Source of the DNA: an uncultured Candidatus Saccharibacteria bacterium
GTDB taxonomy: Bacteria; Patescibacteriota; Minisyncoccia; Phycocordibacterales; DSPV01
Length of the DNA stretch: 64,000 nucleotides
Assembly (NCBI GenBank): GCA_964617735.1
Contig: CAZTXT010000001.1
Coordinates: 331,589 to 395,588, forward strand
Reading direction: 5' to 3'
Shown here: positions 994 through 51,562 of the stretch, piece after piece
Numbering within the stretch: position 1 is the stretch's first letter
Layout: the number at the start of each line of letters is the position of its first letter
The notes under the pieces: generated by a model
Seen by the model: only the letters and a program-made list of their open reading frames with translations
Databases searched by the model: none
What the model was told of the DNA's origin: nothing
Translations under genes and position numbers: made by a program

Positions 994-2142
994 TTTGGTG
1001 TCTTTGAGCGTGAACGCGAATCGTAAGGCGTATGCCATGACAAATGCAAGCACCAGAAAAAGACTCTCGATGCCGGCGAGCGGGAGTATGATGGTCGCAA
1101 GCGCTGGGGCGATCACGTTAGCCCAGGGGCGGGTGGTGCGAAAGAGACTGATATAGCCGAGGTCGGTATCTTTGACCTGCTTGAAAAAATACGTTTCACT
1201 CATCGCTTCCACCATCGAGGCTCCGATGCGGCTGACAAAGAGCAGTATAGTCCAGAAAACGAATCCGCGTGAACTAGAAAGACCCATCAAAAGCGTAGTG
1301 AAGGAGAGTATGATGAAACCCGTCGACATGATCTCCTTTTCTCCGAGCCATCGGTCGGCGATCTTTCCGAATGGCAATTCGAAGAGCGCGAACGGCAGGA
1401 GCATCACCGCGAACATCACCCCAATGTGCTTCCAATCGAACCCGAGGTACTGATGCAGATAGATCGGCGAATAGATCACCATCCATGAATAGAAGAATTG
1501 CAAAAGGAAATTGACGATGAGCACGGTCAAGATGTTCCGGTTTTTCGCTGCGGAAGCGAGCGCGTGCAGAGGATTATTGCCGCGGTATTCGCGGTCGCGA
1601 AAACGGTCGAACTGGAAACGGATGATGATAAGCACCGGAATAAGCGCAAGGGCCGCGATCCAGAATATGTTCCGATAATTGGAACCTGAAATGAAGATCG
1701 CCAGTACCACTTGCGAGATGACCCATGCGCTGTTTATGAAAACCAGGTATGTTCCCCGAATACCCCCGGTCGAGGTCTCTTTCGAGTAACGCTCGAGGAA
1801 AATGTCGAGCGGAAGGGCCAAAAGCGAGATCGAGATGATACTGACAATTTCAGCCGTGATGATCGCGGCGCTTGTCTGCCCGCTCGCCAGGGTTACCATC
1901 GCTACGAGCTCTGCCAAAATAAAGACGAGGATCGAGAAGAAGTTGCCGAAACGGTTGAGCATTTGCGGCAGAAGCGCGATCGCCGCGATGGAGAGTGCCG
2001 AGCCGATCGAGTAGATGGCGCCGACGGCAGACTCGGGAACGAACGTCCCCAAAAATGACGAAGTTATATACGCTGGCAGAGCGACATGCACTCCGATGAG
2101 GAAACCCAAGAGGTATATCGCGGTCCGTTTCGTTTTTTGCAT
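991..2142 (-). CDS. MFS-type transporter (polytopic membrane protein)
   Basis: 383 aa with about 12 hydrophobic segments and MFS-like loop motifs ('GKIADRWLG'). Confidence 0.55.
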   Translation of the reverse strand: MQKTKRTAIYLLGFLIGVHVALPAYITSSFLGTFVPESAVGAIYSIGSALSIAAIALLPQMLNRFGNFFSILVFILAELVAMVTLASGQTSAAIITAEIVSIISISLLALPLDIFLERYSKETSTGGIRGTYLVFINSAWVISQVVLAIFISGSNYRNIFWIAALALIPVLIIIRFQFDRFRDREYRGNNPLHALASAAKNRNILTVLIVNFLLQFFYSWMVIYSPIYLHQYLGFDWKHIGVMFAVMLLPFALFELPFGKIADRWLGEKEIMSTGFIILSFTTLLMGLSSSRGFVFWTILLFVSRIGASMVEAMSETYFFKQVKDTDLGYISLFRTTRPWANVIAPALATIILPLAGIESLFLVLAFVMAYALRFAFTLKDTK

Positions 2143-2151
2143 AGGATTTTC

Positions 2152-4035
2152 CTACGCTCCAATTATAACCGGTATTACGATTGGCCGCTTCGCCGTTTTC
2201 TGGAAGAGGAACCGGCTGACGTTGTCGGTGACGTGCTCTTTGACATACTCGAAGTCTATCGGCTTCATGCCGACCGCGATGTCTTCAATGGTCTTTTTGA
2301 TGATGAGGCGGGTTTGGCTCAACAGATCCTGTGATTCGCGCAGATATACGAAGCCGCGTGAGATGATATCCGGAGATTTCTTGAGCCTTCCCGTCTGGAT
2401 GCTGACGTTGGCGATGATGACGAACATCCCGTCTTGGGCGAGCATCTGCCGGTCTCGGATGACGACTTCCTGCACATCGCCGACTGAGAATCCGTCGACG
2501 AGTACAAGTCCTGACGGCGCTTTTTCTTTCAGCTTGATTATTTTCTCGCCTTGATCGCGTATCTCGATGATGGAGCCATTGTCCGGAATGATGATGTTCT
2601 TTTCAGGATTTCCCCGAGCCATTTCGATATCTGCATGCACGCGAAGCATATAGTGATATCCGTGTAGGGGAATGAAGAATCGTGGATTAATGCGGGAATG
2701 AATCCATGCGGTCTCGTCGCGATTGGCGTGACCGCTTGAGTGTACGTCGGCGATCTTGTAGTGGAGGATGCGCGCGCCCTGCCTTGAGAGGCTGTCCTTC
2801 AGTTTCTGCACCGCGCGCTCATTGCCCGGGACTACCGATGAGGAGAGCACGATCGTATCGCGTTTCCCGATCTTGACCTGTTTATGCGTCTTATTGGCCA
2901 TGCGCATGAGCGCGGCGAATTCGTCGCCCTGCGCACCGGTTGCGATCATCACGATCCGATCCGGCGGATAATCATCCATCGCTTCGACGCCGATGATCGT
3001 TTCTTTCTTCGCCTTGAGCATTCCGAGATGTTTGATGATCTCGATATTGGATTTCATGCTCCGACCCTCGATCACCACCTTCTTCCCGTACTTTTCCGAA
3101 AACTCGACGATCTTCATGATACGCTCGAGGAGCGACGAGAAGGTGCCGATGATGAGACGTCCGCGCGTATTTTTGATTATTTCCTCGAGATTTTTCTGCA
3201 CGACGGATTCGGGCGTTGAGAATCCGGGAACATCCGCGTTGGTGGAATCCGCCATGAGAAGGAGTACTTTTTGGTTCTTGAAGATGCCGTATTCCTTTTC
3301 TTCGCGCTCGGTCGGCACGCCATTTTCATGTTCGAGCTTGAGATCACCCGTGTGAACGATCCAGCCCTGCGGTGTCTCGATGATGACGCCCATCGAATCG
3401 GGGATGGTATGGGTCACGGAGAAAAATCGCACTTTCACACTGCCGATGGTGATAACCGAATCCTTCTCGACTACCTTAATATTGAGGGCGGGGTTGTGCG
3501 GGAATTCCTCTTGCCGTTTTTGAATCATCACGGTCGTCAAAAGACGGGAGTAGAGCGGTGGGTTTCCGATCTTCTCCATGATGTACGGAATAGCACCGGT
3601 ATGGTCGAGGTGTCCGTGCGTGACGATGAGCGCACGCACGCGGTCTCTGCGCTCCTCGAGGTAGCGTGTATTGGGGAGAATGTAGTCGATACCGGGTGTG
3701 TTCTCTTCTTTGAATTGCAATCCCGCATCGATGACGATGATATCCTGCCCGATCTCGATAGCAGTCATGTTCTTGCCGATCTCCTCAACGCCTCCCAAGG
3801 GGACGATGCGGATCACCCCGCTGCCCAGCGGCGGTATTTTATCGGCCGGAGCTCTCGGCGGGAGTTTCGGAGGAGGGGGCATACGGTGGCCGCGGCCTCC
3901 GCCGCGCGCCGGCTTTTTCGGACGCCCGAACGCAGGTTTGCGGTCGAAGTTGTTCAAGCGCGCGTGATAGGGCTTGCGGCGCTGGGGCGCGCCGCGCGTT
4001 CCGGAACCCGTTTGATTGGACTGTGACTCATTCAT
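2152..4035 (-). CDS. rnj: Ribonuclease J (metallo-beta-lactamase/beta-CASP RNase) with a roughly 70-aa R/G/P-rich N-terminal extension
   Basis: 'IVPLGGVEEIGKNMTAIE' and the 'THGHLDHTGAIPY' HxHxDH motif. Beta-CASP and C-terminal domain architecture. Confidence 0.85.
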   Translation of the reverse strand: MNESQSNQTGSGTRGAPQRRKPYHARLNNFDRKPAFGRPKKPARGGGRGHRMPPPPKLPPRAPADKIPPLGSGVIRIVPLGGVEEIGKNMTAIEIGQDIIVIDAGLQFKEENTPGIDYILPNTRYLEERRDRVRALIVTHGHLDHTGAIPYIMEKIGNPPLYSRLLTTVMIQKRQEEFPHNPALNIKVVEKDSVITIGSVKVRFFSVTHTIPDSMGVIIETPQGWIVHTGDLKLEHENGVPTEREEKEYGIFKNQKVLLLMADSTNADVPGFSTPESVVQKNLEEIIKNTRGRLIIGTFSSLLERIMKIVEFSEKYGKKVVIEGRSMKSNIEIIKHLGMLKAKKETIIGVEAMDDYPPDRIVMIATGAQGDEFAALMRMANKTHKQVKIGKRDTIVLSSSVVPGNERAVQKLKDSLSRQGARILHYKIADVHSSGHANRDETAWIHSRINPRFFIPLHGYHYMLRVHADIEMARGNPEKNIIIPDNGSIIEIRDQGEKIIKLKEKAPSGLVLVDGFSVGDVQEVVIRDRQMLAQDGMFVIIANVSIQTGRLKKSPDIISRGFVYLRESQDLLSQTRLIIKKTIEDIAVGMKPIDFEYVKEHVTDNVSRFLFQKTAKRPIVIPVIIGA

Positions 4036-6818: not shown

Positions 6819-7139
6819 ATGAAGAAACATAGCGCGAAGAAAAATTCTATCAAGGTACGACCGCTCGGCGATCGGGTGCTCATCAAAGAACTTAATAAGA
6901 GCGGAGAAGGAGAAACGAAAAGCGGCATTATCATTCCCGAAACCGTCAGCGATGATAAGGGTGCCAAGAAAGGTACTGTTGTTGCTGTAGGGCCGGGCAG
7001 GATGGAAGACGGGAAGACGATCATGGTGCAGGTTTCAGTTGGGGACACAGTGCTTTTCCAGTGGGGAGATATGATCAAGATCGATGGCGAAGAGTATATG
7101 CTGGTGAGCGAGAGCAATATTATTGCCATTGTGAAATAA
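6819..7139 (+). CDS. groES: Co-chaperonin GroES
   Basis: 'KVRPLGDRVLIK...GIIIPET' Cpn10 signature, immediately upstream of groEL. Confidence 0.9.
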   Translation: MKKHSAKKNSIKVRPLGDRVLIKELNKSGEGETKSGIIIPETVSDDKGAKKGTVVAVGPGRMEDGKTIMVQVSVGDTVLFQWGDMIKIDGEEYMLVSESNIIAIVK

Positions 7140-7146
7140 ACATTAA

Positions 7147-8820
<1,674 letters not shown>

Positions 8821-11016: not shown

Positions 11017-11101
11017 GGAGGAGTCGCATAGTGGCCTAGTGCGCTCGCTTGGAAAGCGAGTAGGGGGAAACCCCTCGAGAGTTCGAATCTCTCCTCCTCC
11101 G
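11017..11101 (+). tRNA. tRNA-Ser(GGA), type II with long variable arm, no encoded CCA
   Basis: Acceptor GGAGGAG/CTCCTCC, D-loop 'agtgg', anticodon loop 'ttGGAaa', long variable arm, T-arm GAGAG-TTCGAAT-CTCTC, discriminator G. Confidence 0.85.
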
Positions 11102-11288
11102 ATGCGATTTTGAGAATACCTTTTGGTATTCGTAATCGCATTTCGTGTGAATGCGAGATTCGAAAGCCGCAGCGCACGGAGCGAGTGGAGCGAGCGAAGT
11201 CCGACCGAAGGTCGGGCGCGAGGCGGGGTCGAGAGTACTTGGATTTTTGGAGTCCGCAGGACGAACAAAAAGCTTAGTAACTCGTGAC

Positions 11289-11345
11289 CGAATCTCTCCT
11301 CCTCCGCCTGAAGAAGAAAGTATCGGAGGTATGCGAAGGCATACC
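11289..11345 (+). repeat. Direct repeat B1 (contains an 18-bp copy of the tRNA-Ser 3' end)
   Basis: Matches 14963-15019 with about 5 mismatches over 57 bp. The first 18 nt equal tRNA-Ser positions 11084-11101. Confidence 0.8.
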
Positions 11346-14962: not shown

Positions 14963-15019
14963 CGAATCTCTCCTCCTCCGCCCGAAGAAGAAAGTATCGG
15001 AGATATGCGGACGCATAGC
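14963..15019 (+). repeat. Direct repeat B2 (contains an 18-bp copy of the tRNA-Ser 3' end)
   Basis: See B1. Confidence 0.8.
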
Positions 15020-15526: not shown

Positions 15527-15652
15527 TGGCTAACGGCAAGATGTGATTTTGAGAATACCTTTTGGTAGTTGAGGAAGCAAGAAAATCTATTTTCTTAGAG
15601 AGCATGCTTGGTACAAGATTCGATATTCCAAGAAGTGTGCTAGAATACCATT

Positions 15653-18555: not shown

Positions 18556-21267
18556 ATGTCGCCGACAATCTTTATCAGCAAGCGCGATGGCACGAAGGAG
18601 CTCTTTAACGCTGACAAGATCAACCGCTCCATCGAGCGTGCCTGCGCAGGACTCTCCGATCCGGTCGCGATGGTGACGCAAGTTGCCACCGACACGCGTC
18701 TTACTCTCTATGATGGCATTACTACCGAGGAAATGGACAAAGCGACCATCAATGCGGCCGTACAAAACATAAAAGATGACATAGAATATGACAAAGTAGC
18801 TACCCGCCTCTTCCTCAAGACGATCTACCGACGGGTGATCGGGGAATACGATCTCGATGATCCTGCTGACCTTGCGAAAAAGCATCGCGCCGCATTCATT
18901 CGTTACATCCGCGACGGCGTTGCCAACCATCGTCTGCATGCATACATGGTGACGAAGTACGACCTCGAGCGGCTCGCGGATGCGCTGATGCTTGACCGCG
19001 ATGATCTGTTCCTCTACTCGGGAGTGGACACCCTGATGAATCGCTATGCGATCAAAGATGAGAACCAGCAGCCGACCGAGACGCCGCAGTTTCTGTTCAT
19101 GCGTATCGCGATGGGGCTCTCTTATCACGAAGCCGATCCGACTGCGCAGGCGATCCGCTTCTATGACAAGATGTCCAAGCATGAATATATCGCCGGCGGT
19201 TCGACGAATGTCGCAGCGGGCACGATGCGTCCGGCGCTCTCCAACTGTTTTCTACTTGAGATTCACGATGACATGGATCACATCGCGAAGTCGGTATCCG
19301 ACATCATGCTTCTCTCCAAGGGTTCGGGCGGCATCGGTGCATCATTAACCAAATTGCGCGCGGCCGGCTCTCCCCTGAAGTCGAATTTTGGTGGTGCGTC
19401 CACTGGACCTACTCCATTCGCGAAGATCATCGACACCGCGATACGCGCGATCCAGCGCGGCGGCAAGAAAAAAGGCGCGCTCTGTTTTTACATGGAGAAC
19501 TGGCACCTGGATTTTCCTGAATTCATTGATTGGAAGCACAATGCGGGCGATGACTACATGCGCATGCGCACCGCGAATACCGCCGTGTTCCTCTCCGATG
19601 AGTTTATGAAGCGCGTCGTGGGTGGGCAAGACTGGTATATGTTCGATCCGGCCGAAGCAGGTGAACTCAACGAGCTTTACGGCTCGGCGTTTTCCGAGAA
19701 ATACAAGGAGTATGTTGCGAAAGCGGAGCGCGGCGAACTGCGTGTGTACAAAAAAGCGCCGGCCCGGGAGCAATTCCGGCAGATTCTGGTTTCTCTGCAG
19801 TCAACGTCGCATCCGTGGCTGACGTGGAAGGACCCCATGAACCTCCGGGCGCTCAACAATAACACCGGTACGATCCATATGTCGAATCTCTGCACCGAGA
19901 TCTGTTTGCCGCAAGACAGAAACAACGTTGCCGTTTGTAACTTGATCTCAATAAACCTTGCTAAGCATGTCTACAATCGTGAGATGAACTGGGCGAAGCT
20001 CGAAGAATCGGTACGACTTTCCGTGCGGCAACTCGATAACCTGATCGACATCAACCAACTCGCGATCCCCGAAGCACGCCGTTCGGATTCCGAGAATCGC
20101 GCGATCGGGCTCGGGGTGATGGGATTTTCGGATACAATCGAGCAGTTCGGTATGAGCTACGACAGCACGCATGCGCACGATTTTGCCGACCGGATTTTTG
20201 AATTCATCAGCTACATGGCGATCGACGAGAGCGCGAACCTCGCCCGCGAGCGCGGTGCGTACAAGAATTTCCCCGGCTCACGCTGGTCCTTGGGCATGGT
20301 ACCGTTCGACACTATCCAAGTTCTTGAAGATGACCGCGCCCGTCCCGTAACCGTATCGCGGGAGAGCAAACACAAAGGACTCAACTGGGATCTGCTTCGT
20401 GCGAAAGTGAAGTCAGGTATCCGCAACGCAACCCTGATGGCGGTGGCACCGAACGCGAACATCGGACTGGTCGCCGGCACGACGCCGGGCATCGATCCGC
20501 GGTTTGCACAGGTCTTCTCGCGCAACAAAATCTCCGGCAAGTACATCGATATCAACCATAATCTTGTCAAAGATCTTAAAAATATGGGACTGTGGGACAA
20601 GGTGAGGCACGCGATCATCGAAAGTCAAGGAGACATATCGTTGATCGAGGGAATCCCCGAGCACATCAAGGGAATGTACAAAACATCGTTCACAACCTCG
20701 CCGTATGCATTTATCGAAGTTGCCGCACGTGCACAGAAATGGGTTGATCAAGGGCTCTCGCGCAATATGTACCTTGAGACGCGTGACATCGACGAGACGA
20801 TGCAAATTTACACGGCCGCGTGGGAGAAAGGCGTCAAGACTACCTATTACTTACACATGAAGCCACGCCATACCGCCGAGCAGAGTACCGTGCGTGTCAA
20901 CAAAGCAGAGAAGATCGGCAAGATCGGTTTCGGAGCCGTTGCGGCGAAGATGGCTGAACGGAAGCTCGGCTTCGCAGCGCCTTTACAAAAGTCCCTTGAA
21001 ATAGAGACGCCGGTTGAAATCCCGGTCGCTAAGCCTGCGTCTCTCCCACAGGCGGTAAAAATCGAGGAAGTGATCTCGGTAGCGGTTCCAGTTGCGGCGG
21101 CTGCGCCAGCTATAGAGGCAGTTCCGGTGACCGTTCAGCCGCGCCCGAAGCTTACGCCAGAGCAGGTTCAGGAGTTATTGAAAGATTTTGGGAAGAAACC
21201 GATACACAATCCTGGAGATGGTCCGGTGGATCCGGGGGCAGACAATATTTGCATCGGTTGCGAATGA
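18556..21267 (+). CDS. nrdA: Ribonucleotide reductase class I alpha subunit NrdA with ATP-cone and a roughly 110-aa A/P/V-rich C-terminal extension
   Basis: ATP-cone 'ISKRDGTKELFNADKINRSIERA' and catalytic 'NLCTEI'. Followed by nrdB. Confidence 0.9.
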   Translation: MSPTIFISKRDGTKELFNADKINRSIERACAGLSDPVAMVTQVATDTRLTLYDGITTEEMDKATINAAVQNIKDDIEYDKVATRLFLKTIYRRVIGEYDLDDPADLAKKHRAAFIRYIRDGVANHRLHAYMVTKYDLERLADALMLDRDDLFLYSGVDTLMNRYAIKDENQQPTETPQFLFMRIAMGLSYHEADPTAQAIRFYDKMSKHEYIAGGSTNVAAGTMRPALSNCFLLEIHDDMDHIAKSVSDIMLLSKGSGGIGASLTKLRAAGSPLKSNFGGASTGPTPFAKIIDTAIRAIQRGGKKKGALCFYMENWHLDFPEFIDWKHNAGDDYMRMRTANTAVFLSDEFMKRVVGGQDWYMFDPAEAGELNELYGSAFSEKYKEYVAKAERGELRVYKKAPAREQFRQILVSLQSTSHPWLTWKDPMNLRALNNNTGTIHMSNLCTEICLPQDRNNVAVCNLISINLAKHVYNREMNWAKLEESVRLSVRQLDNLIDINQLAIPEARRSDSENRAIGLGVMGFSDTIEQFGMSYDSTHAHDFADRIFEFISYMAIDESANLARERGAYKNFPGSRWSLGMVPFDTIQVLEDDRARPVTVSRESKHKGLNWDLLRAKVKSGIRNATLMAVAPNANIGLVAGTTPGIDPRFAQVFSRNKISGKYIDINHNLVKDLKNMGLWDKVRHAIIESQGDISLIEGIPEHIKGMYKTSFTTSPYAFIEVAARAQKWVDQGLSRNMYLETRDIDETMQIYTAAWEKGVKTTYYLHMKPRHTAEQSTVRVNKAEKIGKIGFGAVAAKMAERKLGFAAPLQKSLEIETPVEIPVAKPASLPQAVKIEEVISVAVPVAAAAPAIEAVPVTVQPRPKLTPEQVQELLKDFGKKPIHNPGDGPVDPGADNICIGCE

Positions 21268-21272
21268 GGCTC

Positions 21273-21401
21273 GGGAGGTTATTTTGAAAGACCGGAAAAA
21301 TCCCCCAGCGGGGATTTTTCCTAATCCGCTCGGCTCGCTCTCAGGTGCCCAGGATAGGGCACCTGAACCGGCCTCCTCGCCGTCTTTCAAAATAACCTCC
21401 C
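21273..21401 (+). repeat. 129-bp structured inverted-repeat element with embedded intrinsic terminator (copy 1)
   Basis: Terminal inverted repeat 'gggaggttattttgaaagaccgg' / 'ccgtctttcaaaataacctccc'. Inner hairpins 'gaaaaatcccc-cagc-ggggatttttc' and 'caggtgccc-aggata-gggcacctg'. A second copy lies at 51427-51548. Confidence 0.75.
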
Positions 21402-21598
21402 TCGCTTTGAGGGTTTATACAAGTAATTTGTGCGCGTTTTTCAATTGCGACGGTTAAGTAAAGATGCTACTATTTCAATCACTATGAAAGTTCAGAAGTT
21501 ACTGGAGATGCTTTCTGAGCGGAATAATAATTTTATCTTTTATAGCCTCTTTGTTTTCTCGGTCATAATTTATTACTCCTAATTCTTAACCCATTCCC

Positions 21599-22603
21599 AT
21601 GCTCATCGGGAAAGCATCGCCGGAGGATATGAACCTTCACCCACTGCGCTACAAGTGGGCGTATGATTTGTACAATCAGGCCGTGAGGAACACGTGGTTC
21701 CCGCATGAGATCGCACTCAAGGAAGATTTAGACGATTGGCAGAAGATGACCGAAGACGAGCGGCATGCAGTCAAATTTACGATGGCGTTCTTCAATCCGG
21801 CGGAGCTGATCGTCAATCGCTCAATAGCTCTCGGCATCTATCCGTACCTCAAGTCGCCCGAGTGCCATCTCTACCTTGCCAAACAGATGTGGGAGGAGGC
21901 GAACCACTGCGTCGCATTCGAGTATGTGCTCGAGACGTTCCCCTTTGATCGCGAGAAGATCTTCACTTTGCACCTCGAAGTTCCCTCGATGCACAAGAAA
22001 GAAGAATATGTCACGCGCTACACCAAGCGCATGACGGAGGAAAACTTGGATATTACAACGACCGAAGGCAAAAAAGATTTTATCCGAAACCTGGTGGCCA
22101 CTAACATTGTGATGGAAGGTGTCTGGTTCTATTCGGGTTTCATGGTCTCGCTTAGCTTTCGCCAGAGAAATCAATTGCGCAACTTTGGCTCCATGATCAA
22201 CTGGGTACTGCGCGACGAGTCTTTACATCTGAAGTTCGGCATTAACCTCATCCACAATATCTTGGAAGAGAACTCTGACCTCTTGACCGAGGAATTTGCC
22301 GACGAGATACGCACTATCATCATTGAAGGGGTTGATTTGGACACCGCGTACAACCGTGACCTCTTTCCGAATGGCATCCTCGGTCTCAACGCTGACTATG
22401 TCAATCAATACGTCCAATATGTCGCCGACCGCCGGCTTGAAGAGCTAGGGCTCCCCAAGCACTACAATGTCACTAACCCCGCCAAGTGGATGTCCGCTGC
22501 GACCGATGTCTTTGAACTCGTCAATTTCTTTGAAGCGCAAAACACGTCGTACGAAGTGGATTCTCACGCGCACGAGACGAAGAAGAAAGAAGAAGCAAAA
22601 TAA
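21599..22603 (+). CDS. nrdB: Ribonucleotide reductase class I beta subunit NrdB
   Basis: Diiron ferritin-like motifs 'EEANHCVAFEY', 'EGVWFYSGF' and 'DESLHLKFG'. Confidence 0.9.
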   Translation: MLIGKASPEDMNLHPLRYKWAYDLYNQAVRNTWFPHEIALKEDLDDWQKMTEDERHAVKFTMAFFNPAELIVNRSIALGIYPYLKSPECHLYLAKQMWEEANHCVAFEYVLETFPFDREKIFTLHLEVPSMHKKEEYVTRYTKRMTEENLDITTTEGKKDFIRNLVATNIVMEGVWFYSGFMVSLSFRQRNQLRNFGSMINWVLRDESLHLKFGINLIHNILEENSDLLTEEFADEIRTIIIEGVDLDTAYNRDLFPNGILGLNADYVNQYVQYVADRRLEELGLPKHYNVTNPAKWMSAATDVFELVNFFEAQNTSYEVDSHAHETKKKEEAK

Positions 22604-24466: not shown

Positions 24467-24520
24467 ACTACTTGAGTGGCATTTGATGTCAAATGAAAAA
24501 CTCCGCCTTTGGGGCGGAGT

Positions 24521-24987
24521 CTCTCATGTCTACCTTGCGTCTATAAGCCGAATTCTGTCGTTCAATCTTGCGATTGAACGGATAGCCATTTATCTAGGCA
24601 CTCCATTACTGAAGAGCTCAAGCGGCACTCCCCATGAACACTTCCATGTTGGGGCTCGACCTTGCAGCTGGGTAAGGATTTAGCCGTTTCACTTCTTCTG
24701 TTGCCAAAAGAACTCGCCCCATGAAGTAGACTTTCGTCACTTAACGGGGCGGTCATTCGCTTTCGCTCATGACCGTCTCTGTTCGCACCTCGCACTTTGC
24801 AGTGGACGGGCGTTACCCGCTACCTTCTTAACCGAGCACCTTTCAAGTCATCTTAATCATCTTGATCAACACGACCTAAAAGGTGCTCGGTAGCAGTTCG
24901 GACTTTCCTCCGAGCACCTTTCAAGTCATCTTAATCATCTTGATCAACACGACCTAAGAGGTGCTCGGCGGCTACCCGACGCAGGGC
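24521..24987 (-). ncRNA. rnpB: RNase P RNA (bacterial type A) carrying a duplicated 59-nt P3-like hairpin module
   Basis: On the minus strand: 'GGAGGAAAGTCCGAAC' (P4 5'), 'GGTAACGCC', 'GCTTGAGC', 'CCTAGATAAATGGCT', 'ACGACAGAATTCGGCTTATAG' (P4 3'). A terminator hairpin plus T-run sits at 24496-24519. A sigma70-like promoter (TTGCAG-17-TACAAT) sits at 24994-25022 on the minus strand. Confidence 0.75.
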
Positions 24988-24993
24988 AGGGGA

Positions 24994-25022
24994 ATTGTAC
25001 AACATTTGTTTTGCGTCTGCAA
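24994..25022 (-). promoter_or_regulatory. Sigma70-like promoter for rnpB (-35 TTGCAG, 17-nt spacer, -10 TACAAT)
   Basis: Read on the minus strand. The -10 lies about 7 nt upstream of the predicted RNase P RNA 5' end. Confidence 0.45.
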
Positions 25023-25114: not shown

Positions 25115-27571
25115 ATGGAAAAAATCAAAGTGAGGATAGAGGAGTCGATGGACAGCGTGTCACGTCTCGAGAATATCGCCTATTACATCTTGTTAGTGGC
25201 CGCATTTTTGTTGCCTATCTTCTTTATCCCCTCGGCGTCGTTCCCGTTCCAGTTTAGTAAAATAGTCTTTGTATCGTTAACGGTGCTGGTCTCCTTCGCC
25301 CTCTGGCTCATCGCGCGTCTCAAAGACGGCAAGTATCTTCTGCCCAACAATTCAGCATTCATAGCGGCAGGTCTCGTGATACTGGCGGTACTACTCTCGA
25401 CTCTGACCTCTCCCGCCTTGAGCGTTTCCTTCATCGGCCAAGGTTTTGAGATTGGCACATGGACCAATGTCGTTATTCTGTTCCTAGTGATGTTCCTTTT
25501 TTCGGCGCTGTTTAGGCCCAAGGAGCGCGTATTCTATCTCTATCTTTCTCTCTTTGCCTCGTCGTTCCTCATCGTCGTGTTCCATGCCCTGCGTTTCGTG
25601 TTCGGTCCGCAGTTTTTGAGCTTTGGGATCTTTACCGACATCACCTCGAATCTTATCGGGAAATGGAATGACCTCGGTATCTTCTTTGGGCTTGTCGCGT
25701 TGCTCTCGCTCATCACGCTCGAGCTCATGGAGTTCAATCAGATCTTCAAGGTGCTTCTCTGGATCGTCTTTGTACTCTCGGTCATCTCGTTGATCATCGT
25801 GAACTTCCCGACGCTCTGGTATGTGCTTGCGGCGCTGTGCCTCTTTTATTTCGTATACGCGTATGCCTTCAAAAGGGATTTCTCGGCGGTTTCTTCCGCT
25901 GGAACAGTCGAGGAAGAGATGTCGTCGATGCAGGATGCAGGAACCTCAAGCCCCGTCCGCAGGTGGCGCGGCAGTATCCTCGCGCTTATCCTTATCGTCA
26001 TCTCGGTAGCACTGTTGACTGATTACTATACTCCGAGCCGGAATTTCGCCAATTGGGTATCGGGTAAATTCAACATCGCGCAGCTTGAGGTCCGTCCGAA
26101 CTGGACTTCAACGACGAAGGTCGCTATTGCGACACTTAAGAGCGATCCAGTGTTCGGTTCTGGTCCGAATCGCTTCGTCAATGAATGGCTGATGAACAAA
26201 CCCGAAGGCATCAATCAGAGCATCTTTTGGAACACCGATTTCTCGTTCGGCATCGGCTATCTCCCGACCCAACTTATCTCAAGCGGGATCGTTGGTTTCC
26301 TTGCGTGGCTCGCTTTTATCCTCTCGATCGTCTATTTGGGAGTGAAGAATCTGCTCACGCCGATCACCGACCGCTTGCACCGCTATCTCTCGGTCTCTTC
26401 CTTCTTCGCATCGCTTTTCTTGTGGACTTTCTTTATCTTCTATATACCGAGCGCGGTAATCCTGACGCTGACGTTTCTGTTCACGGGAGTTTTTATCGCT
26501 TCGCTCTATAACGAGCGTCTGCTGCGCGCAAAGACCATTTCGTTCACGGATGAATCGAGAGTCGGCTTTGTCTCCGCGCTCGTGCTAACGGCCTTTTTGG
26601 TAGGCGTCGTCGCACTCTCGTACGGTTTTGGAAGAAAATTCGTCGCGTCAGCCTATTTCCAAGGAGCAGGCATCGCGTTCAACAATGAAGGCAATGCGGA
26701 TAAGGCCGAAACCCTGGCCGTCAAGGCAGCCAGTCTTTCGAAGAACGATCTGTATGATCGATTCTTAGCTGTGCTCACGCTCAATAAGATCAACACCTTG
26801 CTCTCCAATCCTCCCACGGGTGTTTCCGCCGATCAGATCCGTTCTGATTTCCAGTCGCTGATGGGTAAGGCACTCAATTATGCGCGCGCCGCAACCGAGC
26901 TCGACAAGACCAACTATCAGGATTGGGTTTCCCTCGGCCGAGTGTACGAAGCGGTAGTACCCCTCAATATCCAGGGGGCGTATGAAAGCGCAAAGACTGC
27001 CTATGACCAAGCGTCCCTTCTTAATCCGCACAGTCCGGAGATCGAACTTATTAAGGCCCGGCTCGAGCTTGCACGCAATGACCGCACCAAGGCAAAGGAG
27101 CATATCGATGCCGCTCTTAAGATGAAGAATAACTATACCGAAGCGATCTTCCTGCTCTCGCAGATCCAGGCTGCTGACGGAAAGGTGAAAGATGCGATCG
27201 CTTCAGTTGAATCTGCAGCGGTCCTTGCGCCGAATGATCCGACGGTATTCTTCCAACTCGGTCTCTTGAAGTACAATGCCCACGATTATCGCGGCTCGGT
27301 ACAGGCACTCGAGCGCGCGGTCTTTCTTGCCCCATCGTATTCGAACGCTAAATATTTCTTGGGCCTTGGCTATTATCAGATCGGGAAGACGAGCAACGCG
27401 CTCACGCAGTTCAACGATATACTCACCTTAAATCCGGGCAATGCGGATATTCCGGTCATCATAAAGAATATCCAGAATGGGCGTGATCCTTTTAGCACGC
27501 TGAAAGATTCTGAAAAGCCTGACAAACGCGAGACTCTGCCGGTCGAGGAGAAACCGGTGAAGGACGAATAG
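25115..27571 (+). CDS. O-antigen ligase-like polytopic membrane protein with C-terminal TPR repeats
   Basis: About 12 TM segments followed by TPR-like repeats ('...AHDYRGSVQALERAVFLAPSYSNAKYFLGLGYYQIGK...'). Confidence 0.6.
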   Translation: MEKIKVRIEESMDSVSRLENIAYYILLVAAFLLPIFFIPSASFPFQFSKIVFVSLTVLVSFALWLIARLKDGKYLLPNNSAFIAAGLVILAVLLSTLTSPALSVSFIGQGFEIGTWTNVVILFLVMFLFSALFRPKERVFYLYLSLFASSFLIVVFHALRFVFGPQFLSFGIFTDITSNLIGKWNDLGIFFGLVALLSLITLELMEFNQIFKVLLWIVFVLSVISLIIVNFPTLWYVLAALCLFYFVYAYAFKRDFSAVSSAGTVEEEMSSMQDAGTSSPVRRWRGSILALILIVISVALLTDYYTPSRNFANWVSGKFNIAQLEVRPNWTSTTKVAIATLKSDPVFGSGPNRFVNEWLMNKPEGINQSIFWNTDFSFGIGYLPTQLISSGIVGFLAWLAFILSIVYLGVKNLLTPITDRLHRYLSVSSFFASLFLWTFFIFYIPSAVILTLTFLFTGVFIASLYNERLLRAKTISFTDESRVGFVSALVLTAFLVGVVALSYGFGRKFVASAYFQGAGIAFNNEGNADKAETLAVKAASLSKNDLYDRFLAVLTLNKINTLLSNPPTGVSADQIRSDFQSLMGKALNYARAATELDKTNYQDWVSLGRVYEAVVPLNIQGAYESAKTAYDQASLLNPHSPEIELIKARLELARNDRTKAKEHIDAALKMKNNYTEAIFLLSQIQAADGKVKDAIASVESAAVLAPNDPTVFFQLGLLKYNAHDYRGSVQALERAVFLAPSYSNAKYFLGLGYYQIGKTSNALTQFNDILTLNPGNADIPVIIKNIQNGRDPFSTLKDSEKPDKRETLPVEEKPVKDE

Positions 27572-32943: not shown

Positions 32944-33020
32944 GCCGGGGTAGCTCAGTTGGTTAGAGCGTCCGCCTGAAGAGCGGTAGGTCGCCAGTTC
33001 GACTCTGGCCCCCGGCACCA
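32944..33020 (+). tRNA. tRNA-Phe(GAA) with encoded CCA
   Basis: Acceptor GCCGGGG/CCCCGGC, D-arm 'agctcagttggttagagc', anticodon loop 'ctGAAga', T-arm GCCAG-TTCGACT-CTGGC, CCA at 33018-33020. Confidence 0.9.
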
Positions 33021-34475
33021 GTTGGGAAAAGTCAAAGAATCTTTATTCGCCTCGCTTCGCTCGGCGAGCACTTCGCGCGGCCTGTTCAGCGTAAAATGCA
33101 GTTTCCGATCTTCCAGACAAAAGTTCGAGCCGATGGTTTTAAGAAATGTTGTCATTCCTGCAAAGTTCTCCGAACTTTGCAGAATAAAGGCTTGATTCAA
33201 GGATTTTACGAACTCACGAGCTAGTTCGAGCCACGACAATCCTTTCTGTTCAAAATCAGTGATTTGTTCCTGAAGTTGTAACTTTTGGGAAATGAATTTT
33301 TCTTTTTTCCTCGCGTACTCTTCATGCGTCAACCCCTCACTCAAATACAAGTCTACAAGCTTGTCCAGCTTTTTCTCGACATCGGCTAACTCGACTTTAA
33401 GATTTTGAACAGAAAGGACAGCTTGTTGCCTTGCTCGCCTTTCGTCTTTTTCAAGTTCTGCTAATACCTTCTCCATGTCGTGGCTCGGCAAGGAAACTTT
33501 TCGTAAGAGATTTCTGATTTGCTCGGCTAACTTTTCCTCCCGCACAAAATGCTTTTCTTGGCAGTTTCCTTTTTTCTTGGTGCATCGGTAGTAGTGGTGT
33601 CCTTTCTGTATTTCGGCGGTGATTGAACATCCGCAACTTTTGCATTTCATAAGTCCAAGAAAAGCAAAGTGGTGTTTCTTTATCTCGCAGACCTTGCCGC
33701 GTTTTTCCAAAACCTCCTGCACCTTGTCGAAAAGTTTCTTTGATATGATCGGCTCGTGAGTTCCTTCGAAAATTTCCCCCTTCCACCTCATGAGTCCGGT
33801 GTAGAAAATATTTTGTAGCATGACAGGAATATGGCTCATGGCGATATTGCCGTTTGTATTGCTTTTCAGACCATTTTCCTTGCACCAATTTGCGAGAGAG
33901 TGGAGAGTGTAGTTTCCGGTGGAATACAGTTCAAATAACCTCCTCACTTTTGGGGCTTTCTCCGCATCAACATCAATTCCTCTCGTCTTTGGGTTGTTCA
34001 GGTATCCCACCGGAGCCCAGCCAGGCCAAACGCCATTTCGTATTTTTTGTCTCAAACCTCGCTTCACATTCTCTCGCAAATTGTCTACAAAATATTTTGA
34101 TTGGCCGAAAGCGATATTGAGCATAAACGAACCTTGCGGTGTCGGTTCGAACCAGAAGGTGGGAAATTTCAAAGATCTAATCAAGCCTTTATCAATCATG
34201 TAAATGATGCGTCCACCATCTACACTGTTTCTCGCAAGACGATCGGGGTGCCATGAGACAATACCCTCGGCTTTTCCTTTCTCAATCAATGACAACATTT
34301 CTTGAAACTTGGGACGGCCAGTCTCTTTGGCTGTTTGTGCCTCGCAAAGCGAGGCGACAATTTCAAGTTTTTCTTTGGCGCAATACAAAGACAGCTCAGC
34401 AAGCTGAGCTTGAATTGAAAGCACTTGTCGGTCATCTTCCTCGGTTGATTTCCGAGCGTAGAGGATGTATTTCAT
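32955..34475 (-). CDS. Large serine recombinase (resolvase catalytic domain, recombinase domain and zinc ribbon)
   Basis: N-terminal 'YARKSTEEDD' catalytic Ser motif, zinc-ribbon 'CKSCGCS...YYRC'. The last roughly 20 codons run antisense through tRNA-Phe. Confidence 0.85.
   Translation of the reverse strand: MKYILYARKSTEEDDRQVLSIQAQLAELSLYCAKEKLEIVASLCEAQTAKETGRPKFQEMLSLIEKGKAEGIVSWHPDRLARNSVDGGRIIYMIDKGLIRSLKFPTFWFEPTPQGSFMLNIAFGQSKYFVDNLRENVKRGLRQKIRNGVWPGWAPVGYLNNPKTRGIDVDAEKAPKVRRLFELYSTGNYTLHSLANWCKENGLKSNTNGNIAMSHIPVMLQNIFYTGLMRWKGEIFEGTHEPIISKKLFDKVQEVLEKRGKVCEIKKHHFAFLGLMKCKSCGCSITAEIQKGHHYYRCTKKKGNCQEKHFVREEKLAEQIRNLLRKVSLPSHDMEKVLAELEKDERRARQQAVLSVQNLKVELADVEKKLDKLVDLYLSEGLTHEEYARKKEKFISQKLQLQEQITDFEQKGLSWLELAREFVKSLNQAFILQSSENFAGMTTFLKTIGSNFCLEDRKLHFTLNRPREVLAERSEANKDSLTFPNWCRGPESNWRPTALQADALTN
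33014..33094. repeat. Inverted repeat a, left copy (includes the tRNA-Phe CCA end)
   Basis: Reverse complement of 34530-34610. Confidence 0.8.
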
Positions 34476-34529
34476 GGTTTTGGTGAGAGTTAGTTGATAA
34501 AAATGTTCTTGTATTCTTCCCTAGGGAAT

Positions 34530-34610
34530 TTCACGCTGAACAGGCCGCACGAAGTGCTCGCCGAGCGAAGCGAGGCGAATAAAGATTCTTTGACTTTTCC
34601 CAACTGGTGC
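34530..34610. repeat. Inverted repeat a, right copy
   Basis: Contains a copy of the recombinase C-terminal coding segment (ORF 34494..34679 shares '...FTLNRP.EVLAERSEANKDSLTFPNWC'). Confidence 0.8.
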
Positions 34611-34695
34611 ACTACTCTTGAATTAGTCCGAACGCATTTTGCCGCCGCAGGCGGCGAGGACTGTCCGCGCGAGAATTGAGCGGGCGGAGCCCGCA
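34607..34695. repeat. Inverted repeat b, left copy
   Basis: Reverse complement matches 35995-36085 over about 55 bp at the outer ends, with a variable centre. Confidence 0.7.
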
Positions 34696-35008
34696 TCTTT
34701 TCAAACAGCCAAAGAGGACTAATTCAAGAAAACCATCGACTCGAACTTTTGTCTGGAAGATCGGAGGGAAGAACACAAGAACATTTTTATCTGATTTAAC
34801 GGCCTAGAAAGGCCGTATTTTGATGGTTGTTCTGTACCTTGACTAAACACAAGCTATATGTTATTCTCTCTGCAGTTCGTTGTAAGCGAGTATTTTTGGA
34901 ATTGCCGTAGCATTTGCGGGCTTGTTGGCTTTGTCTAACACGTTTAACTAACAAAGGACTATCGCATGTGAAAGATGACTTGAGTGAGTCATCTAAGTCA
35001 ACGTAGCA

Positions 35009-35722: not shown

Positions 35723-35994
35723 CCCATGTGAGGTAACCAATACTGGGAGATCAGAGCATCTGATCGGTTGAACCAGCGGGGGACGGAGAAAACGCCCTGG
35801 CAACAGAAGCTAGTACGGGATCATAAGCTACATACATTCCCGAAAGCACAACTAGGTACGGCAACTACCTCAATCGTTGCATTCAAGGAGCGAGGTTCTA
35901 TCCCAAACTCCGCCGCACACATAAGTGTGCGGTTTTTCGTATTCGCTTGGCGAATGCTAGAATTAGTTTGCGCCAAAGAAAAACTTGAAATTGT

Positions 35995-36085
35995 CAAAGA
36001 TCGCGGGCTCCGCCCGCTCCGTTTTTACGGGGGGTGTCCTCGCCGCCTACGGCGGCGAAATGCGTTCGGACTAATTCAAGAGTAG
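35995..36085. repeat. Inverted repeat b, right copy
   Basis: See inverted repeat b, left copy. Confidence 0.7.
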
Positions 36086-36226
36086 TGCACAAGAAAATCG
36101 GCGCAAGCCGATTTTGCGTGATGGGGGCCAGAGGGGGAAGGGGTCGGGGAACAGGGACGTTCCCCGATGAGGAGAGCAGTCTGCCGAAGGCGAGACGTTG
36201 AGAACCGCGGGTTCTCAAGGAGCGTA

Positions 36227-44140: not shown

Positions 44141-44230
44141 TGGCGGAGGAGGTGAGATTCGAACTCACGAGAGGATTTCTCCCCTACCGCATTTCGAGTG
44201 CGGCGCGTTAGACCACTCTGCCACTCCTCC
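44141..44230 (-). tRNA. tRNA-Ser(CGA), type II, with encoded CCA
   Basis: Minus-strand read 'ggaggagtggcagagtggtctaacgcgccgcactCGAaatgcggtaggggagaaatcctctcgtgagttcgaatctcacctcctccgcca'. Confidence 0.85.
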
Positions 44231-51354: not shown

Positions 51355-51426
51355 TTCACTGTCCCCATCGAAAAGGCCGAAAGCGGAATCCGCGAGTAGG
51401 TCTTTTTCTTTCAAACTCTAACCGAG

Positions 51427-51548
51427 AAAGTTATTTTGAAAGACGGCGAGGAGGCGAGCGGGCATGGTTTTTGCGAAGCAAAAGAGCAAGCCGAGCGGAT
51501 AAGGAAAAACTGCCCGCTGGGGCAGTTTTTCCGGTCTTTCAAAATAAT
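51427..51548 (-). repeat. 122-bp structured inverted-repeat element with embedded intrinsic terminator (copy 2, inverted relative to copy 1)
   Basis: 'gttattttgaaagacggcgaggaggc...ggaaaaactgcccgctggggcagtttttccggtctttcaaaataa'. Same architecture as 21273-21401 with compensatory stem changes. Lies 15 nt past the ftsZ stop. Confidence 0.75.
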
Positions 51549-51562
51549 CTTTTGAGCGGCCT

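Follow-up and report, generated by a model that had tools for sequence, protein, structure and literature searches.

The window analysed here, a stretch of 64 kb, belongs by its sequence to a Taylorbacteria-like member of the Patescibacteria (CPR) and carries rnpB on its minus strand at positions 24528-24987 (460 nt). The gene was located with a permissive E-value Rfam scan, in which it aligned to RF00010, the type A RNase P RNA, over model positions 1-367, and type A was the top-scoring member of the clan. The score of 92.8 bits (E 8.6e-29) is lower than the gathering score of 100, and an Rfam scan of the window at gathering thresholds listed tRNAs only and no RNase P. The shortfall is consistent with the presence of two 59-nt insertions in the RNA. 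According to Lui et al. 2021 (PMC8172020), CPR RNase P RNAs have extended helices and score below the thresholds, which had to be lowered.

The strands and helices of the RNA, all of them on the minus strand, were assigned by the RF00010 alignment and by landmark mapping. The 5' strands of P1 (24978-24987) and P2 (24970-24977) are followed by helix P3 (24910-24968), a 27-bp hairpin with one C.A mismatch that aligns to P3 of RF00010 and is the first of two copies of a hairpin module. Next come the P4 5' strand of the catalytic core (AGGAAAGUCCG, 24899-24909), the P5 5' strand (CUGC, 24893-24896; RF00010 alignment) and the second copy of the module (24832-24890), again a 27-bp hairpin, which occupies the hairpin slot in J5/7 and is treated by the model as an insertion between P5 and P7. 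An A-rich linker, UUAAGAA, and the P7 5' strand, GGUAG, together at 24820-24831, correspond to the clade-wide consensus UUAARAAGGUAG and lead into the specificity domain (24692-24819) with P8, P9, J11/12, P12, P13 and P14. The remainder of the RNA contains P15 and one P16/17 hairpin (24624-24661) and, within 24544-24617, P18 (24598-24617), the P2 3' strand (24580-24587), the P19 hairpin (24560-24579) and the P4 3' strand (ACAGAAUUCGGCUUA, 24544-24558). The two P4 strands (AGGAAAGUCC... and ACAGAAnnCGGCUUA, at 24899-24909 and 24544-24558) and the closure of the molecule by paired P1 and P2 are those of a type A RNA, as are, in the RF00010 alignment, P12, P13 and P14 of the S-domain and P18 of the C-domain.

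A -10-like box, TACAAT (24994-24999, minus strand), can be read 6 nt upstream of the first P1 base. A sigma-70 scan did not flag it; it aligns with TGGTAnAAT-type boxes that lie 6-9 nt upstream of P1 in seven of the relatives described below (L007, L128, L130, L132, L133, L136 and L140). Beyond the 3' end of rnpB, at 24496-24521 on the minus strand, the sequence reads as a GC-rich, terminator-like hairpin (GACUCCGCC-CCAAA-GGCGGAG) followed by UUUUU, and an automatic terminator scan reported nothing at the gene, though the hairpin and the five U are visible. The gene is the organism's RNase P RNA gene and is probably functional.

A few genes away, at 18556-22603, the window encodes a 903-aa ribonucleotide reductase ORF and a 334-aa small-subunit ORF, and PF00268 was found on a Logan gene identical to the latter. 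In four of the relatives (L130, L133, L136 and L140) the neighbour is a reductase of ~766 aa with ATP-cone and RNR_Alpha domains, and no small subunit was called in the fetched stretches.

Two copies of a hairpin module within one RNase P RNA

The module is a 59-nt near-palindrome that is present in two direct copies, at 24832-24890 and 24910-24968. Sequence comparison and repeat detection agree that the copies are spaced 78 nt apart and identical at 58 of 59 positions, the sole difference being A at 24880 versus G at 24958. The first-pass annotation had described this pair with its single difference, had placed the reverse complement of the P4 5' strand of a minus-strand rnpB gene between its members, and had recognized one of them as P3. 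The RF00010 alignment bears this out, as it assigns 24910-24968 to P3, the 19-nt spacer (24891-24909, the reverse complement of AGGAAAGUCCGAACUGCUA) to the P4 5' strand and P5, and 24832-24890 to the insertion between P5 and P7. Both copies are therefore inside the RNase P RNA, on either side of the P4 5' strand, and the covariance model gives no placement that would leave the duplicate outside the RNA.

Folded alone, each copy forms a 27-bp hairpin of high predicted stability (copy 1: -37.4 kcal/mol, z -9.9; copy 2: -41.1 kcal/mol, z -12.7). The G at 24958, a C in the RNA, results in the C.A mismatch in P3, and the copy in J5/7 has a U-A pair at this position. A pattern search allowing up to 3 mismatches found exactly two copies of the module in the 64 kb, with 0 expected from shuffles. 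BLAST of the window against itself placed the module in no wider repeat family, and no further copies were found in the window by either search, in the fetched loci or in the viral contigs.

It should be noted that the window is probably derived from a metagenome assembly, that repeats are prone to assembly errors and that the RF00010 score is below the gathering threshold, all of which could point to an assembly artefact or a decaying pseudogene. However, the genes flanking rnpB are present with 100% identity on two Logan contigs of run SRR12313480 (possibly the same reads as those of the window's own assembly), one of which stops at window position 24861 while the other starts at 24928. In a de Bruijn graph with k=31, the last k-mer that holds the unique base 24831 spans 24831-24861, and a contig coming from the low side must stop there; from the high side, every k-mer that holds the differing base 24958 is unique, so that the contig extends down to 24928. 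Both breakpoints match this prediction exactly, and thus the two contexts and the single A/G difference were present in the reads. In addition, the essential P4 strand is located between the copies, and the only path through the graph that includes it crosses both of them. The duplication is not an assembly artefact. Decay of the gene is opposed by the intact core strands, promoter-like box and terminator, and sub-threshold scores are normal for CPR rnpB (PMC8172020). Artefact or pseudogene, taken together, can be given almost no credence.

The hairpin slot between P5 and P7

The gene for a TPR/O-antigen-ligase-like protein (25115-27571) lies upstream of rnpB, which is oriented divergently from it, and this arrangement is conserved in relatives. 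This syntenic gene was used in the search for relatives instead of the downstream histidine phosphatase gene, the homologues of which (L124-L126) are not syntenic with rnpB. (The database protein for the histidine phosphatase begins 12 codons after the first ATG of the window's ORF.) The best non-self match of the TPR/O-antigen-ligase-like protein, at 69%, is from Candidatus Taylorbacteria RIFCSPHIGHO2_02_FULL_46_13. The sample contains rnpB genes from 11 other species (L007, L064, L083, L122, L128, L130, L132, L133, L136, L138 and L140), and the length of rnpB in the clade ranges from about 330 to about 900 nt. A single metagenome scan with a lineage-specific extension yielded three matches, one of which was the Taylorbacteria locus already found and one of which was truncated.

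The rnpB of L007 (CAYJSB010000022.1) is 79% identical to that of the window over 300 nt. This contig is titled Candidatus Saccharibacteria, and its rnpB and its TPR protein (P0125, 62% identical to that of the window) group with Taylorbacteria-like genomes, so that the label is probably wrong. At the upper end of the length range, the gene of L138 (ENA ERZ27254763 k141_1996392, ~1460-2400, plus strand; ~900 nt) has very large expansions of P3, P16/17 and P19. Its J5/7 hairpin is 40 nt long and has the base CCGAGC/GCUCGG, the same six pairs as the window module, and no internal duplicate was detected in this rnpB.

A hairpin is present between P5 and P7 in all 11 relatives. With a length of 16-40 nt and, in most cases, a GNRA or UUCG tetraloop as its cap, it varies in sequence, but the hairpin itself is kept. 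The flanks of the slot are the same in the window, L007 and L064, namely CTGCTA on one side of the hairpin and TTAARAAGGTAG, i.e. TTAA(G/A)AAGGTAG, on the other. The second copy had initially been seen as an extra helix inserted in the P5 region. The insertion relative to the type A model stands; the notion of an additional helix does not, since the slot was not empty before. On this comparison, the slot for a helix in J5/7 dates back to the ancestor of the clade, and the novelty in the window lies in its content, a whole copy of P3.

The comparison with L007 also suggests the direction of copying. The basal CCGAGC/GCUCGG of the window module is the base of P3 in L007, and the J5/7 hairpin of L007, 16 nt in length, is the unrelated CUUCGCGAAAGCGAGG. 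Both copies in the window thus carry the P3 base that is common with L007, which argues that P3 was the donor and that the short ancestral hairpin was overwritten; copying would have proceeded from P3 to J5/7.

The module is a near-perfect palindrome and the window has other local repeats, and therefore one may ask whether a mobile palindromic element of the MITE or REP type inserted independently in the tips of both P3 and the J5/7 hairpin. STRRs, for example, consist of heptamers in short tandem arrays, are scattered over the whole genome and are located in P12 of RNase P RNA. Insertions of such repeats in rnpB of heterocyst-forming cyanobacteria (Vioque 1997, as cited in PMC2858038) resemble the present case in that repetitive sequence is tolerated in a peripheral helix of an essential ribozyme gene. 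In the window, in contrast, the second slot holds a copy of an entire helix from the same RNA, and the copies at unrelated sites that characterize a dispersed palindromic repeat were found neither in the 64 kb (two copies only, at up to 3 mismatches) nor in the fetched loci or the viral contigs. Moreover, the identity spans the entire hairpin down to the basal CCGAGC/GCUCGG, which in L007 is ancestral P3 sequence, whereas two independent insertions into loops would have resulted in helices with different bases. Insertion of a mobile element is thus very unlikely.

[quoted passage not shown] It differs from that form by the lack of a convincing P6, in place of which a local hairpin is found between P5 and P7. 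P6 is a hallmark of the type A C-domain, and P5.1, with a contact between L5.1 and L15.1, is a hallmark of type B (PMC5066622), in which P5.1 stands in place of P6, P16 and P17 (PMC2858038; PMC5066622). When the J5/7 strands were compared with the P16/17 region for complementarity of the P6 type, only weak 4-bp matches containing G.U pairs were retrieved, and one 5-bp match of J5/7 falls on the universally conserved GCUUGAG strand. The P6 pseudoknot of J5/7 with the P16/17 region was therefore not found, and J5/7 contains the hairpin instead.

By its position only, this hairpin (24832-24890 in the window, with counterparts in 11 of 11 relatives) corresponds to P5.1. The RNA is nevertheless not of type B, as it has P13, P14 and a P16/17 hairpin, and neither P15.1 nor P10.1 was seen. 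The J5/7 hairpin of the clade is a positional analogue of the type B P5.1 in an otherwise type-A-like RNA. The likeness to P5.1 of Bacillus and its relatives is that of a hairpin between P5 and P7 in an RNA without P6; the difference is that P5.1 of type B acts via a loop-loop contact with P15.1 (PMC5066622), for which the window RNA has no P15.1 or P10.1, and that the hairpin in the window is far longer and a paralogue of P3. The presence in this clade of a type-A-like RNA with a hairpin at the P5.1 position and no evident P6 blurs the line between the two types.

Recurrence of P3 copying in the clade

The first-pass annotation had regarded a duplicated P3 as unusual. Among 108 rnpB genes used as a control, an internal direct repeat of at least 16 nt and at least 85% identity occurs in only 5, which agrees with this view, and yet the top three of these by E-value are the window, L007 and L064, so that the phenomenon recurs within the clade. 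The control loci were mostly from Planctomycetota and Elusimicrobiota and included some redundant copies; they originated from a contig search with the pattern GAGGAAAGTCCGAACTGC, which was not specific enough and retrieved mostly Planctomycetota.

In L007, the P3 sequence is found again in the P16/17 helix, with 23 of 24 positions identical. In L064 (Candidatus Taylorbacteria RIFCSPHIGHO2_02_FULL_46_13, MHRQ01000016.1), rnpB at 7075-7850 on the minus strand has a length of ~770 nt, and a hairpin module of ~137 nt occupies the P3 position; its paralogue, 74% identical overall, lies between the P2 3' and P4 3' strands, i.e. at the P19 position. The helices of this RNA were assigned by reading the sequence and not from the RF00010 alignment, which scores 45.5 bits, misplaces both ends and is unreliable because of the repeated modules. 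Within the basal ~27 bp, the two L064 modules differ by four fully compensatory pair changes and 0 disruptive ones, and the apical parts have diverged. Both copies have thus been maintained as helices, and each arm fits its own partner better than the arm of the other copy. The rnpB of L064 also has a large P15-17 expansion.

Only matches of at least 24 nt were counted as cases of P3 copying. A likeness between P3 and J5/7 in L083 and L136 was rejected as an additional case, because short GNRA hairpins, e.g. AUCGAAAGAU, recur at unrelated positions and in other species. With this threshold, P3 has been copied in 3 of the 12 sampled clade members (the window, L007 and L064), and the recipient sites were J5/7, P16/17 and P19, respectively.

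Predicted folding and its consequences

Two nearly identical hairpins in one RNA can also pair with each other. In the competing fold, pairing takes place between the 5' arm of one copy and the 3' arm of the other, with the P4 5' strand enclosed in between. For the full RNA, this inter-copy duplex is the minimum free energy (MFE) structure, at -216.6 versus -216.5 kcal/mol for the fold with two hairpins, a difference of 0.1. For the isolated 137-nt segment, it is favoured by 4.3 kcal/mol, and the terminal inter-copy pair has a probability of 0.94. The MFE structures of the nascent transcript show P3 fully formed at 78 and 97 nt, the inter-copy duplex at 130 nt and both hairpins at 156 nt. The two-hairpin form would have to be the active one, as P4 requires that its 5' strand is free to pair with 24544-24558. 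The order of transcription, together with the barrier to the exchange of 27-bp stems, would favour this form.

Could the copies be meant to pair, so that the long duplex sequesters the P4 5' strand and serves as an off state or folding switch for RNase P? The predicted stability of the duplex, both in the whole RNA and in the 137-nt segment with its terminal pair, would be in line with such a role. However, the energy gap in the full RNA is only 0.1 kcal/mol, P3 is the first to form as the RNA is transcribed (at 78 and 97 nt) and the swap of 27-bp stems faces a large kinetic barrier. The compensatory changes in L064 favour pairing within each copy over pairing between copies, and RNase P is a constitutive essential enzyme without a known need for a switch. 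A regulatory switch is therefore highly improbable.

The arms might instead be kept identical because their sameness matters, for example, when a shared protein or a dimer bridges both arms and clamps the P4 region, or when both arms, as long double-stranded substrates, are trimmed by RNase III in the manner of intervening sequences in rRNA. In that case, the copying of P3 would be the adaptive addition of a standard, recognized arm at different sites. Several observations are in favour of this: P3 has been copied in 3 of 12 clade members and was the source every time, both old copies in L064 keep their basal helices via four compensatory changes, and the arrangement persists despite the predicted cost of misfolding. 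Stems of 27 bp that are nearly perfect are in the size range cleaved by RNase III, and the modelled geometry would fit that of an intervening sequence excised by this enzyme. On the other hand, three different landing sites (J5/7, P16/17 and P19) speak against a single fixed geometric role. The modules of the three species show no relationship in sequence, so that a shared recognition motif is not apparent, identity was not maintained in L064, where the copies are down to 74%, and no candidate protein was identified. A requirement for identical arms is the main alternative reading, but an unlikely one.

Other structured and repeated elements of the window

An element of ~135 nt is present in two copies, which are 78% identical, at 21276-21411 on the minus strand and at 51416-51550 on the plus strand. 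A stem of 15 bp (GUUAUUUUGAAAGAC/GUCUUUCAAAAUAAC) closes the element, which has hairpins inside, and four pairs show compensatory changes between the copies. No Rfam match to it was found (best E 0.46), and one copy is situated between the nrdA-like and nrdB-like ORFs. The element may be a structured RNA not described so far. Inverted repeats form a cluster that starts right after the tRNA gene at 32944-33017 and comprises 33015-33140, 34356-34383, 34528-34765 and 35968-36093, with repeats of 83 nt (97.6%), 98 nt (87%), 37 nt (97%) and 28 nt (100%). Direct repeats adjoin the tRNA gene at 11017-11101, which resembles the tRNA at 44144-44230; these are 11289-11343 versus 14963-15017 (55 nt, 93%) and 11101-11128 versus 15540-15567 (28 nt, 96%).

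Discussion

The second hairpin in the rnpB of the window is probably the result of a recent copying event within the gene and at the DNA level, which has been tolerated because the J5/7 slot requires little beyond a stable hairpin. P3 of this lineage would first have grown to a hairpin of 59 nt and 27 bp. Template switching or gene conversion within rnpB, a putative mechanism acting on the DNA, would then have put a complete copy of P3 over the short J5/7 hairpin and left both flanks intact. One substitution since that event would account for the C.A mismatch in P3 versus the U-A pair in the J5/7 copy. The resulting RNA would have two separate arms that project on either side of the P4 5' strand and act as ordinary peripheral helices. 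Under this scenario of recent copying, the near-identity of the arms would be a sign of recency and not of a need for sameness, and identity as such would have no function. As the searched collections contain no relative above ~69% identity in the TPR/O-antigen-ligase-like neighbour protein, a recent duplication cannot be told apart from gene conversion that is still ongoing, nor can the short hairpin be shown in a sister lineage.

Two observations count against a purely neutral copying event. The lineage has kept an RNA with a predicted hazard of misfolding that buries P4, which could hint at a benefit, and in L064 the duplicated modules have been kept as helices for a long time, which would be unexpected under pure neutrality. 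P3 could be a reusable building block in Taylorbacteria-like CPR, and its copies in J5/7, P16/17 and P19 could have been retained under selection. Possible grounds for retention could be a lineage-specific factor that recognizes P3-like arms, or the replacement of lost tertiary contacts. At present, this wider scenario is rather doubtful; if it were true, it would document the ongoing evolution of ribozyme architecture through intramolecular duplication of helices.

Within the literature covered, which is incomplete, no RNase P RNA has been described with paralogous copies of its own helices, and no hairpin at the P5.1 position has been described in type-A-like CPR RNAs. The available portion of PMC8172020 does not mention two helices with 58 of 59 identical positions within one RNase P RNA. 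A likeness exists to the expansion segments and the helix accretion of rRNA, and to the intervening sequences of CPR rRNA, in that peripheral helices are added or extended while the core remains untouched. In rRNA, however, the source of the inserted helices is usually unknown, whereas in the window the donor can be identified as P3 of the same molecule.

The findings have a practical side as well. Internal repeats of this kind interrupt assemblies made from short reads and lower the score of rnpB to below annotation thresholds, as seen for L064 with its 45.5 bits, the rnpB of which would be missed or truncated by standard annotation. In CPR genomes, RNase P RNA may thus be recorded as absent by mistake.

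The RNA of the window also constitutes a natural test of how much risk of misfolding is tolerated by an essential RNA. More generally, the gain of helices in large structured RNAs is mostly inferred from ancient and eroded traces, and here both the donor and the recipient slot can be identified in a present-day essential ribozyme, which looks like a structured RNA caught in the process of gaining helices by internal duplication. The copies at 98%, 96% and, with compensatory changes, 74% identity in three related species form a small time series of the birth, fixation and divergence of a duplicated helix.
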